64,000 bases of DNA from Cladosporium halotolerans (GCF_011745625.1 NW_027191452.1:372001-436000); one strand, 5' to 3'; numbered from the stretch's first letter, positions 14,991-25,012 are shown. The notes: generated by a model from the sequence alone, not told the origin. Numbers and translations are program-made.

Positions 14991-16067
14991 TTACCGCCTT
15001 AACACGGGTATCTTATCTCCGCATCCCCACCGTTCTTCTACCATGTCGATGAGCTCCATCAGGTCTTTGCACTCTCCCAGCGCCCTCTTCTGCTTTTTCC
15101 CCATGCCCTCCATCTTTGCCGTCATCTCGCAGACGTGGTACAAAACGAGCGGAAATGGAATCGGGCATCTTATCGCATAGCCCACGAACATCTGCACGCA
15201 TTCAACAGGCGTCACATCATACCCCGCGAACATGGCAGGATTCTCGAGCATGCCTCGTGCCGCCATCACACCGTCCACGCCAGTCCGTGTAGCGATCTCG
15301 TTAACGCCCTTGAGCGTGTATGCATCGCCATTCGCCACAATCGGCACGCTCGCAAACTCCTTCAGAATCCGCACCGCTTCATAGTTGGGCGGCGTGCTGG
15401 AGCGCTGGGCCTTCAACCGCCCGTGAATCGTGATATAGTCGACGCCGGCGTCCTGCACCGCCGTGATCCAGCGCTTCGTCTTCTCCAAATCCTTCGCGAT
15501 GCGGATCTTGACGCTGACGCTCTTGCCCAGAGGCGCGAGCTCGGCTTTCGCCGCCCGCACGAGCTCCGCGACCCGCTCGGGCTCCTCCATCAGCTGGCAT
15601 CCGATGCCTTCCTTGATTGCCCAGGGTTGCGGGCAGCCGCAGTTCAGGTTCACGCCGTCGACCCAGGGTTCGATGAGGACGGAGGCCCGCGTGAAGTCTT
15701 CGACGGACGAGGAGGCGAACTGCGCTACTAGGACGTGGGGCCGGTTGTCGTGCGGTGTTGTTTGCCGTTCTTGCGGGTGGGTTGTGAAGTCGCTGTCGCG
15801 GGCGATGTCGCTACGGATGAACTCGTGGGCGAGCATCATGGGTGTGTACAGTACGTCGGTGGCGTAGTGGCGGGCGACCATCCGGAAAGGCAGTTTCGAG
15901 TAGCTGACGGGGACTGTTAGAAGAAGCACTCATACAGATGCCTGGAATGAGGTTGTGTCCTTACCGCACCATGGGCGCCGAGACTGAATGATAGTTAGCG
16001 GGAGCTCAAGTGAGGAGATGATCAGAAAAACACCTACCATGAAGAGGTCTTCCTTCGACTTTGGCAT
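14991..16067 (-). CDS. DUS4: tRNA-dihydrouridine(20a/20b) synthase
   Basis: Two short 5' exons reconstruct SAPMVRYSKLPFR. Also YTPMMLA, QFAS, NLNCGCPQ (catalytic Cys), SVKIR, ITIHGR, VANGD and GVMAARG motifs. The start codon at 16067 is predicted. Confidence 0.85.
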
Positions 16068-19818: not shown

Positions 19819-20157
19819 AGTGCCGAGGGCAGGATTTGGTGCTAGATGTATTCTTAGTAATGTTAGCATATAATTGTTCATGATATTTGTTTTGTGATGC
19901 ACAGTTCTCTCTAGAAATGAGTTTGTCCAGTCAGGGTGGGTGCTCTAGTCCTGGGATCAATGTTCACACCTTACATAGTCGAACTCGGCTTGTACGTTGG
20001 GCGGCAGGGCTTCGACAAATACACTTGACGACAAACGCGAAATTGTACCAAAAAAAGACAGAGACGGACGCAGAAATATCTTGTTGCTGCACTTGATACA
20101 CTGGAAAGATCAAAGGGCTCAGGAAAACTGACTTGCGTTGGTGCTTTGCACTCATAG

Positions 20158-20177
20158 CTAACCCCAACCCTAACCCT
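20158..20177 (+). repeat. Short degenerate telomere-like (CCCTAA) tract
   Basis: CTAACC-CCAACC-CTAACC-CT, about 160 bp upstream of the ATG at 20337. Confidence 0.4.
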
Positions 20178-20336
20178 TTGAACCCCACTCGCTTGAGTGG
20201 AATCGTGCATGTGATCCCGACAGCTGCGCCGAGCTCGCTCCAATATCAACCGGAAGCTCGATACATTCGACTTCTTGAGCGCGTGCTTTACTCGGAAGTA
20301 TAACACTCATTCGCTCTAGCGATAGACTTATTAATA

Positions 20337-20987
20337 ATGGCCATGAACTTTGCCCCATACCAATCTTCTCCACCAGAATCCACTCGCGCCCTCTCACCAC
20401 CCCTCCGCTCTCCCACAACGTCACCCAAACCACAGCAAGTCAGACCCCAACAAAACCTCGCATCCGTCACTAGCCCACGAGAAGAAGATCCCTGGGCGGC
20501 AGCGCGCGCACAGCGTCTACCTTCGCCTTCACAATATGCAGACGACGAGGAGCTAGGCACGGGCGGATACACAGACATAGAACGAGACCCCCGACACAAC
20601 GATTATCTTGACAACCGCGGCGATGTATACACGTACACTGGCAACTCGTCGCTCTTCGAAACGTCCCTCGGCATCTCGCTGCAAATAGAGGCATGTCTGG
20701 CGTACGTCGTGCTGCCGCCCGCGGGCGGGGTCATATTGCTGCTTTTCGAGCACAAGAGCGATTACGTCCGGTTCCATGCGTGGCAGAGCTCGCTGGTGTT
20801 TGGTGCTTTGTTCTTGATACATGTGGTGTTTAGTTGGACGTCTATTATAAGCTGGATGCTGTTCGCTTTCGACATTTTCCTTATTGGGTATCTATCACTC
20901 GGAGCCTGGAGGCACGCGGAGACGCTGGACAGGGTAGAGGTTCCTTACTTTGGGAGACTGGCGAGTAGTTTTGTGGACGACGAATAA
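20337..20987 (+). CDS. Small membrane protein, UPF0132/DUF4870-like
   Basis: MNFAPYQSSPPE N-terminus; FETSLGISLQIEACLAYVVLPPAGGVILLLFEHKSDYVRFHAWQS; about three TM segments; C-terminus ...GRLASSFVDDE. Confidence 0.8.
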   Translation: MAMNFAPYQSSPPESTRALSPPLRSPTTSPKPQQVRPQQNLASVTSPREEDPWAAARAQRLPSPSQYADDEELGTGGYTDIERDPRHNDYLDNRGDVYTYTGNSSLFETSLGISLQIEACLAYVVLPPAGGVILLLFEHKSDYVRFHAWQSSLVFGALFLIHVVFSWTSIISWMLFAFDIFLIGYLSLGAWRHAETLDRVEVPYFGRLASSFVDDE

Positions 20988-21805
20988 GTGAGAGCTTCAG
21001 CTGCGCTGCATATTGGAGACCCGATGTAGATTTAAGTGAACTACAGACGAAAAAAAGAGCCATGAAACCTCGGGACGAAGTCACACTCGGCGGGCTAGCA
21101 CACCATTGACTTCAGGTCACTGTTGCGCAGACACCTCTCATAGGCTAGGTGATGTCTTGCCACCGAAGGGCCATTCGAAACACAGTCAGACAACGGTCAT
21201 TCACTACTCAGGCGGACAAAACACTGTCATAATTTGCCCATACTGTAAGTCAAGCGCTCGGTACTTGAATGTGTACCATCCCAATCTCACTTGTACGCCT
21301 TCTTACACGTTCCTGGCACACCCTGGGATCCCATCAAGAATCGATTGAATCTACATCCCCATTTGGTGTGTAGATAGTGACGAACAACAACCCTCCACGC
21401 CTTGGCCTTCTCAGTACAATCCCAACCTTCTCGGCAGTATCTGCAAAGAACAGGAGTAACGAACCTGCTATTCTTCACAGAAAGAGATTGACGTCGGCCG
21501 ACGCGGACAATTCACCAATTAGCATATGTGAAGAGTCGCCATGATTGCGCCTGAACCTCATAGATGATGGCAAACGCCACTTCGCATCTCGAACTCACGA
21601 CCGGGTCCCAGTGATCCTGGATGAGTTGATCGCCAGGAGTTCGGAACTTCGGACCCAGCCTACTATATTATGTCCGGAATAGAATAACAGTTGAATATGG
21701 AGAGCATGCTGTTCTTGCTGAGGATGTTAAGTAGAATGCGCAATGGACGTTAGGCGAACCGTTCCGCGTCTCCTTTACTTGACAGTTCCAGAGGGGTTAT
21801 GCTCT

Positions 21806-21815
21806 ATCACGTGAT
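21806..21815. promoter_or_regulatory. Palindromic E-box ATCACGTGAT (bHLH site of the Cbf1/SREBP type)
   Basis: Perfect 10-bp palindrome. An identical copy lies at 13347-13356 in a divergent promoter. This copy sits between two convergent gene ends, about 240 bp upstream of the candidate ncRNA. Confidence 0.4.
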
Positions 21816-22053
21816 TCGCGTCATTTCACTTAACCTCACCTCACACCCTTGACATATCCCATCCGCAGCAACGGCGAGCACAGCCAGTAACAGTAACAAT
21901 ATCTAGCCAATATTGATAATCACATATGTACTGTACTCTGCATCACCCACACAACCCAGACCCACATTACCTACCCCCTACCTCCTCCCAACCCCCACGC
22001 TCCCCACGCCCTCACCTCACTTATATATTATTGTGCAAACCGAATGACACAAC

Positions 22054-22273
22054 CAGAGCACGAGCAGGCGCTTTAGTCCTGCGTGGCGTAGTGGTAAGCC
22101 GCGCGAGACCGGGCTACAGCTGTAGCCCTTCGCCAGTGACCGAGGACTGTTCATGGCCCGCCCCACCGAAAGCAAAATCCGCTGTGAGAGAGCGATTTTC
22201 TTGACACCCCCCGAGCGAGGCGGGGTGGTTCTTTTGCTGGGGATTCGAGCCCGGGGTGCTTCTGTCGTTTTTT
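22054..22273 (+). ncRNA. Candidate structured Pol III-type non-coding RNA (family not recognised)
   Basis: TATA-like TTATATATTA at 22021-22030; perfect A-box TGGCGTAGTGG at 22084-22094; B-box-like GGATTCGAGCCC at 22241-22252; T6 at 22268-22273; at least six compatible helices, including 5'/3' end pairing. Confidence 0.55.
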
Positions 22274-22306
22274 GGTCTTTGTCTTTTTATGGTGGAAGGA
22301 AGGAAA

Positions 22307-22322
22307 GGGGGGGGGGGGGGGG
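22307..22322 (+). repeat. G16 homopolymer
   Basis: Sixteen consecutive G after GGAAGGAAGGAAA, 11 bp from the GH3 stop codon. Confidence 0.9.
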
Positions 22323-22333
22323 TTATGCATGCT

Positions 22334-25012
22334 CTAGAGTCCATTCCAGAACCTCGTCTTTTGTACTCTCACGGAAGTTTCCAGAAATTCACCAGCGCTG
22401 CTGGTGCCTACCATGATCTTGTACTCGCCTGCCGCGCTACACCATCTGCTCTCTTTCTCCTCCCAGAAGCTAGTAGCTTTCACCAAGTCGACATCGATCT
22501 CCACATCAGCTTGCTCGCCGCCCTTCAGCAACTTCTTAATGAAACCCTTCAGCTCCTTCACTGGGCGCTTGATGGGCGGCGACACGGGCGCGACGTAGAC
22601 CTGCACGACCTCAGCGCCCTCGCGGCTACCAGTGTTCTCGAGCTTGCAACCAACAGAGATGATGTTGTTCTCCTTTTGCTGTAGATTGAGGTCCGACAGG
22701 TTGAAAGTGGTGTAAGACAGGCCGTGACCGAAGGCGAACGAAGGCTCGATTTCCATCTCCTCGTAGTATCGGTAGCCCACGTATACGTCCTCGCCGTACA
22801 GCACTCTGCCACCTTCGGATCGGTAGTTCAGGTACGTCGGATTGTCTTTCACGCGCTTGGGAAACGTGAGAGGGAGTTTGCCAGAAGGGTTGACGTCGCC
22901 ATAGATGATGTCTGCAATGCCGTGCCCGGTCTCGTTGCCACCGTACCAGGCCTGAATCACGGTTTTGGCTTTCTTGATCCACGGCATAGTCACAGGCGTG
23001 CCGCTTTGGATGACGATGACAGTGTTAGGGTTTGCATCAAGGACTTCAGAGATCAAATCATCGGTGTGAGGCGGCAGATCCATGGTCTCGCGGTCTTCGC
23101 CTTCCGACTCCCACTCGCCGCTCAAGCCGGCAAAGAGGACCACCTGGTCGACCTGCGAGGCGAGTTTGGCTGCTTCCCTAATGGCATTCTTCGTGTCGAT
23201 GCGCTTGCTGGCGCTGAAACGCAGACCTCCGTGGCCGAAGTCCACAGTGCCTGCTCGCTTGAGCGTGCTGGTCTTTGCGCAGCCCCATTGCACTGTGATG
23301 CGGTAAGACTGGCCGGCTTTGAGCTCGATATGGCCCATTTCCTCGACGGTGCCGGTGCCGAGGAAGCTGGAGCCAGGCTTTTGGTGCTTGACGTTGCTGA
23401 TCAAGAGTTTGCCGTCGACGAAGAGCTCCGCCGTGCCGGTGACGCTCAGTCCAAAGTCCCAGAGTCCGGACTCGCTAGGCGTGAAAAATCCATCTGCTTC
23501 AGCGTACCAGATCGTGTTCAGGTTGGGGTGGTTGTAGTCGACGAAGAAGATGATTGAATCCTTCAGACGGCGCTCTTCGAGCATCTCTCGTTTGTGGACA
23601 CTTGGTGGGTCGTTGAAAGTCCGAATCGTGAAGCCGCTCTTCCCGTCGGATGTGACGAGATCTCTGCCAATCTGAGGGAGCATCTTGTGTCCGTAGGCAC
23701 CTTGAGAGAACTCCACGGTTCCCTTCGCCTGAGCTTTGATGCCATCGTATGGTGTCACAGCTCTGTACGCGTTGAGAGATGCACTGCCGCCGCCGCAATA
23801 GGTGGTGATCTTGCTGTTAGGTCCGATGACTGCGATCGTTTTGTTCTTTATGAGCGGGAGCACTGCGTCGTCGTTCTTCAGCAGCACAGCGGCGTTCGCG
23901 GCCACCTCTCTGAGCAAGCTGCGGTCCTCCTCACGGTCGAGCTCTTCTTCAGGAGCATTTTCTGGGACTCCGGATTTTCCTGCCGTCTTGATGAGGTTCA
24001 AGACCTCGCGCACACGAGCATCGAGCTCAGACACCTTGACCTTATTGGCTGATACGGCATGTGCCAGGGCAGCACCACGCCACCTTGTTGGTCCCGGCAT
24101 TTCGAGATCAAGACCTGCTTTGATGGCTTCCGAAGTGCTGTACGTGCCAAACCTTTGGATATGTTAGTTCTGCATTATGCCTAAGCCCGAAACGAAAGCG
24201 CTCTTACCAATCAGACATCACAAGACCTTTCCAGCCCCATTCGCCTCTAAGGATATCTCTAAGCAACTCGGGCTTCTCTGACGCATGTACACCGTTGACT
24301 CGGTTATAAGCTGTCATGATGGCACCGGATTTGGAAGCCTCAATGGCAATCATGAAAGGCATCAAGTAGATTTCCCTCAAAGCTCGATCAGTCACGATCG
24401 AGCTTACCGCCATGCGTTCGTGCTCTTGGTCATTGCAGACAAAATGCTTCAGGCATGCAACTATATCTCTCTCCTGCAACCCGTTACAATACGATCCAGC
24501 AAGAGTCCCTGATAGTAAAGGATCCTCGGAGTACGATTCGAAGCCTCTGCCGCCCAAAGGTCCTCTCTGGATGTTGATGGTTGGACCGAGCACGACATGG
24601 GCGCCTTTCGCCTTAGCTTCGTCGGCCAGAAGGTTTCCAATGCGGCGCACAAGGGCTGTGTCAAAAGTGGCTCCAATGGCTGTGCCGCAAGGCAAGCACG
24701 CTGAGGGTGTGCTGCCGAAAAAGTGCGTCCCGCGGATGCCATTGGGTCCGTCGGAAGTCCGGATGGAGGGGATTTTCAGGCGTGGAATGTCCTGCGTGTG
24801 CCAGAAGTCCTTGCCTATCGTTGTGTCAGTATAGAACTTATAGCTTAATGTGGCGTTGAGTCTGGGGCCGGAATACCAGCAAGCAGCGCCGCCTTTTCTT
24901 CAATGGTTAATTCTGACAGAAGGGTGTCTACGTCGAAGCCATCAGGAAGCAGGTTCTTGCGAGCGCTAGCATCGTGTCTAGATGACGCCCTCTGTTGGCT
25001 ACTGGGTGCCAT
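22334..25012 (-). CDS. Intracellular GH3 beta-glucosidase with PA14 and FnIII-like domains (3 exons)
   Basis: [59 protein letters not shown] (nucleophile Asp), [18 protein letters not shown] and FGHGLSYT motifs. Introns 24815-24876 and about 24153-24207. No signal peptide. Alternative ATG at 25063. Confidence 0.93.

Follow-up and report, generated by a model that had tools for sequence, protein, structure and literature searches.

Pol III RNAs of filamentous fungi are thought to be few and known, comprising tRNAs, 5S RNA, U6, SRP RNA, and RNase P RNA. Signals for Pol III or for tRNA processing are also carried by molecules that do not decode, as in yeast RNA170 and ZOD1, mascRNA, and the bacterial YrlA Y RNAs. 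The vault RNA genes of animals have a layout of their own: the boxes lie near two conserved ends that pair with each other, the length of the central domain differs between paralogs, and upstream elements contribute. PMC7904556 describes them as small paralogous Pol III families whose A and B boxes are of the tRNA type.

How are such genes read? In type 2 Pol III transcription, boxes A and B are bound by TFIIIC, TFIIIB sits upstream with TBP, and transcription terminates at oligo-T, as outlined in passages of PMC7279448 and PMC11547032. The usual spacing from A box to B box is given in PMC7279448, in its passage on these promoters, as 30-40 bp. Conserved sequences in the 5' flanks of tRNA genes are presented in PMC11547032 as a feature confined, so far as known, to S. 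pombe and some plants. Finally, filamentous fungi have tRNA-related SINEs, an example in the relevant section of PMC5063351 being AfuSINE2 of Aspergillus fumigatus.

The element considered here lies in a 64-kb window (the whole stretch of DNA that was analyzed, from whose first letter all positions are counted), which is eukaryotic, fungal DNA. Its signals are those of a stand-alone gene of the Pol III type, on the + strand. It has a TATA-like block, like tRNA genes with an upstream TATA of the S. pombe type and like the tRNA-Gly gene of this window, and it shares with tRNA genes an A box in a D-arm-like hairpin, a B box/T-loop-like motif, a tRNA-like tail, and a T-run. It differs from them in having no cloverleaf, in a spacing of 157 bp between the boxes where 30-40 is usual, in a T-like loop of 8 nt, and in the 22 nt that separate its acceptor-like strand from the A box. 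The family to which it belongs has the layout of vault RNA genes, a likeness in architecture and not in membership: vault RNA (RF00006) gave no Rfam match with E up to 10, and the element RNA would be twice as long. To our knowledge, the major vault protein is absent from fungi. With RNA170, ZOD1, mascRNA, and YrlA the likeness is that D-loop-like and T-loop-like motifs could mimic the tRNA elbow; we know of none among these as a multi-copy family with the 3' module of the element. Taking everything together, we lean toward the view that the element belongs to a small family of stand-alone, tRNA-derived small-RNA genes that is lineage-specific and most likely read by Pol III.

The Locus and Its Promoter Signals

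The element is intergenic, between convergent ORFs that end at 20987 (+) and 22334 (-); the convergent stop codons that an earlier, sequence-only reading of this DNA had placed on either side of the gap are both there. The minus-strand neighbor, ORF 22334-24100, is a GH3 beta-glucosidase (Pfam Glyco_hydro_3_C, PA14, and Fn3-like). A minus-strand frame is open over 22020-22286, and no spurious ORF products of 48-156 amino acids from it were found in the protein database. With Rfam gathering thresholds and ARAGORN, a tRNA-Gly gene at 2201-2271 is the sole tRNA found in the window, and blastn at word size 7 found no further copies of the element inside the 64 kb. The parts of the element are collected in Table 1.

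Table 1. Features of the element and its upstream block, in window coordinates
Feature	Position	Strand	Basis
TATA-like motif TTATATATTA	22021-30	+	sequence
Upstream promoter block: TCAC, TATA-like box TATATAT (22022-28), GTGCAA (22033-38)	22017..22038	+	sequence, paralog ends
Conserved 5' segment: likely RNA 5' end (~22052-22057), closing-stem 5' strand GAGCAC (22056-61)	22043..22078	+	
tRNA D-arm-like hairpin GCGTGGC/GCCGCGC with loop GTAGTGGTAA, holding the A box TGGCGTAGTGG	22081..22104	+	
A box TGGCGTAGTGG, exact	22084-94	+	pattern search
Variable middle: perfect 18-nt palindrome hairpin (22111-28), AGGACTG (22143-49) complementary to TAGTCCT (22074-80)	22095..22162	+	
Conserved 3' module: hairpins AAAAT-CGCT/AGCG-ATTTT (22174-99) and CACCCC/GGGGTG (22205-27), and GGTTCTTTTGCTGGGG	22163..22242	+	
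B box/T-loop-like GATTCGAGCCC (22242-52) in CTGGG/CCCGG hairpin with 8-nt loop	22237..22254	+	sequence, paralog ends
T-loop/B-box-like motif GGATTCGAGCCC	22241-52	+	pattern search
tRNA-3'-end-like tail: GTGCTT (pairs with GAGCAC 22056-61), then short trailer	22256..22267	+	
T6 run, presumed Pol III terminator	22268..22273	+	sequence

Each motif that the sequence-only reading had listed (TTATATATTA, TGGCGTAGTGG, GGATTCGAGCCC, and the T6 run) was located in the sequence at its place. As in type 2 Pol III genes, an A box and a B box stand on the same strand and are followed by oligo-T, here 24 nt from the TTCGA of the B box to the T6 run; the spacing between the boxes is atypical, being far larger than the usual one. 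The search used consensus patterns that we take to represent the two boxes. For the A-box pattern TRGCNNAGTGG the window has 4 occurrences where 0.96 would be expected; a second exact match, at 15860, sits inside a 312-aa ORF. For the B-box pattern GRTTCGANNCC there are 5, with 1.36 expected. Taken alone, these motif counts are weak evidence.

A further sequence signal lies upstream. TATATGTACAATTGCA, which resembles the upstream block of the element, is found 46 nt before the first base of tRNA-Gly. A pattern covering both, TATATNTNNNNNTGCA, has 2 sites in the 64-kb window, namely the element's upstream block and the place 46 nt before tRNA-Gly, a count to be read in the knowledge that the pattern is post hoc and was built from those same two sites. 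Its independent check is the set of paralog upstream ends described next.

A Small Family in Related Genomes

Logan contigs on 20900-22500 come from four runs: X5 and X6 are DNA of close relatives, and X15 and X16 are RNA libraries. All of the family evidence derives from this one set of assembled contigs, which show neither strand nor true ends nor RNA level. By copy depth and separate paralog contigs in the relatives, the gene is not unique but one of a small family. Depth in X5 over the bins of 22034-22249 is 43.7, 25.6, 59.7, and 97.1 versus 11.5 in the flanks. In X6, the 3' part of the element has 145 and 346 versus ~30-50 (about 36) in flanks whose depth locally reaches about 146 near 21764-21817. 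Because depth exceeds that of the flanks in both, the element, and especially 22142-22249, is present several times per genome; contig depth puts 22043-22242 at roughly 2-10 copies in the two related genomes. Within the element, depth is lowest in 22095..22162, at about 1-2 copies, and highest in 22163..22242, the 3' module (60-97 versus 11.5 in X5; 145-346 versus about 36 in X6).

Where do the copies begin and end? Separate contigs part from the window sequence at 22043-45 and at 22239-42; the first matching position in paralog contigs is 22043, 22044, or 22045. Beyond these points, paralog flanks are visible for 30 nt each, and the upstream ends were aligned by eye. In that alignment, a TATA-like motif stands at the window equivalent of 22020-23 in the window and in all four paralog upstream ends listed, and the same holds for G[TC]GCA[AG] at about 22031-33 and for TCA[AC]. 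The motifs of the block keep within 2 nt of the same position across the four listed ends and the window. On the other side, TTCGA[AG]NCC occupies the place of the B box in the window and in five out of five paralog downstream ends listed. A run of at least three T follows 17-25 nt past TTCGA in the window and in the five listed paralog tails, which otherwise diverge. When the tails are counted in the manner of a tRNA (7-nt loop, 5-nt stem strand, 7-nt acceptor strand, and discriminator), C stands at the equivalent of tRNA position 72 in 5 of 6, and a short trailer precedes the T-run.

The interior of the copies is less uniform in one part than in another. DNA contigs of the relatives skip 22095-22162 or 22095-22195, jumping from 22094 to 22163 or to 22196. 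Both of these paralog joints start at 22094, so conservation among copies reaches the end of the A box. Over 22196-22242, paralog contigs have 1-3 differences from the window, and the indels among copies, in the rows listed, fall in the hairpin loop 22184-22193. One paralog upstream end (in a contig common to X16 and X5) retains an identical CGAGGACTG in diverged surroundings, which may be taken as a hint in support of the TAGTCCT/AGGACTG helix. In another paralog, the hairpin at 22174-99 has a different 3' strand that is still pairable with the unchanged 5' strand. A conserved 5' segment and a conserved 80-nt 3' module on either side of a variable middle argue for family-wide selection on the ends and the 3' module.

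The copy at the orthologous position bears on selection in another way. The element is found at the same locus in two of two relatives examined. In X5, the ortholog consists of unitigs at single-copy depth (12.2 and 10.9), the first of which overlaps the flank contig by k-1, and it has 1 difference from the window in 182 positions (22044-22225). The X5 flank contig (20900-22073) departs from the window at 56 of 1174 nt, not counting 7 gap letters; the same rate would put 8.7 differences in the ortholog (Poisson P(<=1) = 0.0016, for this one relative). The ortholog is about ten times better conserved than its own flank. From the window sequence alone the case would be open; it stands above chance because of the family evidence from the relatives' contigs.

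Evidence from RNA Libraries

Window-type contigs from X15 cover 22057-22182 (1 difference) and 22153-22240 (2 differences), and paralog contigs are present besides. In X15 and X16, depth is zero in all 17 bins of 21116-22033, so that ~900 intergenic bases upstream of the element have no RNA-library contig. Depth is likewise zero in 22250-22357, but unitigs break at the paralog branch point near 22240, so that this gap says nothing about a 3' end. The 5' end that had been proposed fits an X15 window-type contig that begins at 22057. This contig starts there without a loose end, and the X5 DNA unitig at 22044, a weak hint that the RNA 5' end lies near 22057. The proposed oligo-T end is in keeping with a 199-nt paralog contig from the RNA library X16, which ends in TTTT.

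Some contigs run past these limits. One X15 paralog contig reaches 57 nt further upstream than 22043 and takes in the TATA block. Two more overshoot 22241-42, by 82 and 121 nt, and one of the two passes a T5 run by ~53 nt. Such crossing of the gene borders points to read-through, to another polymerase, or to DNA in the library. RNA-run depth over the element is low (2-8) and similar to that of the neighboring mRNA end at 20900-21101 (3.2); from a highly abundant Pol III RNA, more would be expected.

Predicted Fold

The sequence-only reading had also proposed a set of helices, and here the outcome is divided. All 46 bp of the eight helices are standard and the helices are mutually compatible, but only three of the eight have high ensemble probability (>0.97): the D-like hairpin 22081-104, with pair probabilities of 0.97-0.99, the palindrome 22111-28, and CACCCC/GGGGTG 22205-27. 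TAGTCCT/AGGACTG and both halves of the 22174-99 hairpin have an ensemble probability of <=0.2. The domain that had been described as tRNA-like and as closing the molecule turns out to be the weakest part of the fold: the end-closing stem has a probability of <0.1, and the T-like hairpin, whose loop is 8 nt, or 7 nt with a mismatched stem, has one of <0.01 and so is not thermodynamically favored.

The structure as claimed has -64.5 kcal/mol (-79.5 when completed) versus an MFE of -86.9, that is, it lies 7-22 kcal/mol above the MFE. The MFE z-score of 22040-22273 is -1.7 on the + strand, where 9 of 200 shuffles fold as well, and -1.1 on the minus strand. Support from thermodynamic folding is modest, and the predicted fold is not exceptional. 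In the X15 ortholog, a C at 22123 breaks one pair of the palindrome.

Known RNA Families, Databases, and Literature

Does any catalogued RNA family describe the element? The sequence-only reading had seen no hallmarks of U1-U6, RNase P/MRP, SRP, or U3 RNA, and Rfam agrees: searches of 21000-22400 and 22050-22270 with E up to 10 returned only chance rows to mammalian lncRNA fragments. SRP RNA, RNase P/MRP RNA, U6, 5S rRNA, Y RNA, and snoRNAs gave no Rfam match at that limit. The SRP Alu-domain, RNase MRP, and C/D and H/ACA snoRNA were in addition judged by eye and dropped, with no support from Rfam. The element is not a canonical tRNA either, as had been said: ARAGORN and Rfam (RF00005) place no tRNA there, and ARAGORN at low threshold with introns allowed gave implausible tRNA models only and no tmRNA. 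Present in RNA libraries and conserved between related fungi, the gene is probably a real small RNA in no catalogue, and no Rfam family describes it. The original proposal of a Pol III noncoding RNA of ~210 nt has kept its Pol III-type signals, its place outside the catalogued families, and its distance from canonical tRNA; the closing domain is not supported, and the gene is one of several copies.

Collections with few or no fungal genomes were searched with short words from the element. A 22-nt word occurs in metagenome contigs at one locus, with no likeness beyond the word, which is read as unrelated bacterial DNA. In similarly constituted collections, a 23-nt word had no match in viral contigs and a 24-nt word had none in prokaryote genomes. 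In the open-access literature, no paper was found that describes the element or its sequence words, the matches being unrelated, and the main text of the Cladosporium fulvum genome paper has no mention of SINE, tRNA, or polymerase III.

Also considered were the introner-like elements of Dothideomycetes, spliceosomal introns that occur inside genes in many copies (PMC4457414). Six short words from the element have no relevant match in four supplementary text files of that paper, whose families come from other species. The element copies carry their own promoter and terminator and appear not to fit this description.

Alternative Explanations

Could the family be a tRNA-derived retroposon (SINE), or a set of decaying but still transcribed tRNA pseudogenes without a function of their own? 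This is unlikely, though a good deal of the evidence is what such an origin would leave behind. Like fungal tRNA-derived SINEs such as AfuSINE2, as characterized in the relevant section of PMC5063351, the element is tRNA-derived, has an internal Pol III promoter with A and B boxes, is multi-copy, and is dispersed, here over different contigs. Its copies differ by large internal indels, and its tRNA-like parts are degenerate, with an 8-nt T-like loop and no cloverleaf found. What sets it apart from those SINEs begins at the upstream end, where a positioned promoter block is present in four of four upstream flanks listed; insertion at random sites would not give that. At the other end, the terminator follows immediately on a B box that is the last part of the element, nothing LINE-like or A-rich trails behind, and the paralog tails are alike. 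Copy number is low, at about 2-10, and no flanking target-site duplication was seen among the direct repeats of 21960-22330. Neutral decay does not agree with an ortholog that is conserved as described above (in one relative), and the element keeps its locus in both relatives. The sequence-only reading had allowed for the head of a SINE; with a 3'-terminal B box, no tail, no target-site duplication seen, a shared promoter block, and a conserved ortholog, that option fits poorly.

Less probable still is that mRNA-type or unconventional introns split what is a genuine tRNA gene or a gene recently derived from one, which would make the 205-nt RNA a precursor. Several details make this worth weighing: the D-arm resembles that of long-arm tRNAs (in a comparison with yeast tRNA sequences), sequences like a 5' splice site occur at 22094 (GTAAGC, inside the A box) and at 22184 (GTGAGA), a branch-point-like TTGAC occupies 22201-05, and both paralog joints begin at 22094. 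The tails, moreover, look like tRNA 3' ends, with a 7-nt loop, 5 + 7 nt, discriminator, trailer, and T-run, and with C72 in 5 of 6. The sole contiguous canonical hairpin of the anticodon type that was found is 22179-95, with the loop GTGAGAG; an anticodon-arm scan gave several split candidates besides, none of which extends to a cloverleaf. Hand models (with His/Leu anticodon-like loops, a TGGCG/CGCCA helix, or a 71-76-nt 5' domain at 22074-22149) were tried as well, and none completes a cloverleaf.

Removing candidate introns did not bring a tRNA to light. With one or two GT/GC...AG intervals 30-170 nt long taken out (3052 products; thresholds of 100, 97, 95, 92, and 90%), ARAGORN found 0 tRNAs, and in 18336 products of single arbitrary deletions it found 0 as well; it was the sole detector, and the atypical T-like arm of the window, with its 8-nt loop, may fail in every product. 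Between the acceptor-like 5' strand (22055/56-61) and the A box there are 22 nt, a gap that is too short for a spliceosomal intron and has no GT. In the libraries, window-type contigs of X15 span 22057-22240 with no joint, and no splice joint in the element appears in the contigs of either RNA run, from which assembly drops rare forms. Both a SINE and an intron-split tRNA are less likely than a stand-alone small-RNA gene.

It is very improbable that short motifs merely co-occur by chance in the intergenic or 3'-UTR DNA of convergent genes with no gene present: each motif is common alone (4 A-box and 5 B-box patterns in the window), the fold z-score is just -1.7, and the motifs were picked out by a reader from a very large amount of screened sequence, but there are multiple homologous copies with the same ordered signals, the ortholog is selectively conserved, and RNA-library coverage in the intergenic stretch is confined to the element.

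How the Gene May Work and What It Would Mean

Reading the element as a stand-alone small-RNA gene, its working can be pictured as follows. TFIIIC would bind the A and B boxes across their 157 bp, and TFIIIB would assemble on the TATA block. Transcription would start near 22052-57 and stop in the T6 run at 22268-73, yielding an RNA of ~205-215 nt that ends in oligo-U and that would neither be a tRNA nor be spliced into one. The conserved ends might serve both transcription and, through a terminal stem, stability, and the conserved 3' module could be the functional part, with the middle free to vary. What might such an RNA do? A stable small RNA that binds protein is our best guess, offered as a much weaker claim than that of the gene family. 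A fuller version, which we put forward tentatively and regard as possible without being probable, is that of an undescribed family in Cladosporium-like fungi: stable tRNA-derived Pol III RNAs of ~200 nt with paired ends that bear the boxes, a conserved 80-nt 3' module, and a variable middle, a counterpart in architecture of vault or Y RNA that would act as a protein-binding or tRNA-mimicking regulator.

The host group consists of very common molds. A conserved, expressed, multi-copy family that has the signals of a tRNA gene and no tRNA product would add a member to the fungal Pol III set, and it would be a concrete instance of evolution from a tRNA gene to a different type of RNA. The promoter, with its TATA block and distant A and B boxes, could serve for the expression of guide RNAs in Cladosporium-like fungi.

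Internal repeats and flanks of the proposed RNA gene

How is the proposed tRNA-derived, Pol III-type small-RNA gene put together internally? A repeat search of 21960-22330 found two direct repeats within it (listed in the table below), and because of them the 22202-32 hairpin resembles both ends of the whole element fused. The members of the first pair lie 157 nt apart, which is also the distance from the A box to the B box.

The gene sits between complementary low-complexity tracts, with a C-rich stretch on one side and a run of 18 G on the other. Read on the strand of the convergent GH3 (beta-glucosidase) gene, the latter is C18, and it follows the stop codon of that gene after 11 nt. The length of this tract is variable: in a comparison of contigs with the window, the close relative represented by DNA run X6 omits 3 + 11 letters.

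Features in and around the RNA gene and elsewhere in the window
Feature	Position	Strand	Details
tRNA-Gly(GCC) gene	2201-2271 (region 2154-2275)		TATATGTACAATTGCA 46 nt upstream; T5 run immediately 3'
Telomere-repeat-like GGGTTAGGGTTGGGGTTAG	~20157-20184	minus	between pieces of ORF that precede the 20337-20987 exon
C-rich stretch	21940-22010
Open frame	22017-22286	minus	89 codons, stop to stop
Direct repeat 1	22045-22059, 22202-22216		TGACACAACCAGAGC, TGACACCCCCCGAGC; 80%
Direct repeat 2	22221-22232, 22252-22263		CGGGGTGGTTCT, CGGGGTGCTTCT; 92%
G18 run	22306-22323

Neighboring features and the open reading frame

The tRNA-Gly(GCC) gene serves as the in-window reference for a Pol III promoter of Cladosporium halotolerans. 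From the RNA-library run X15, a contig of 486 nt matches the GH3 gene at 22392-22476, where it shows 11 differences over 85 nt; to either side of this segment the two sequences no longer resemble each other. The likely source of the contig is a paralogous or foreign GH3 transcript from a mixed sample.

One minus-strand frame is open through the entire element, and the protein collection searched at 48-156 aa contained no product of it. Gene callers could be misled by this open frame over the RNA gene.
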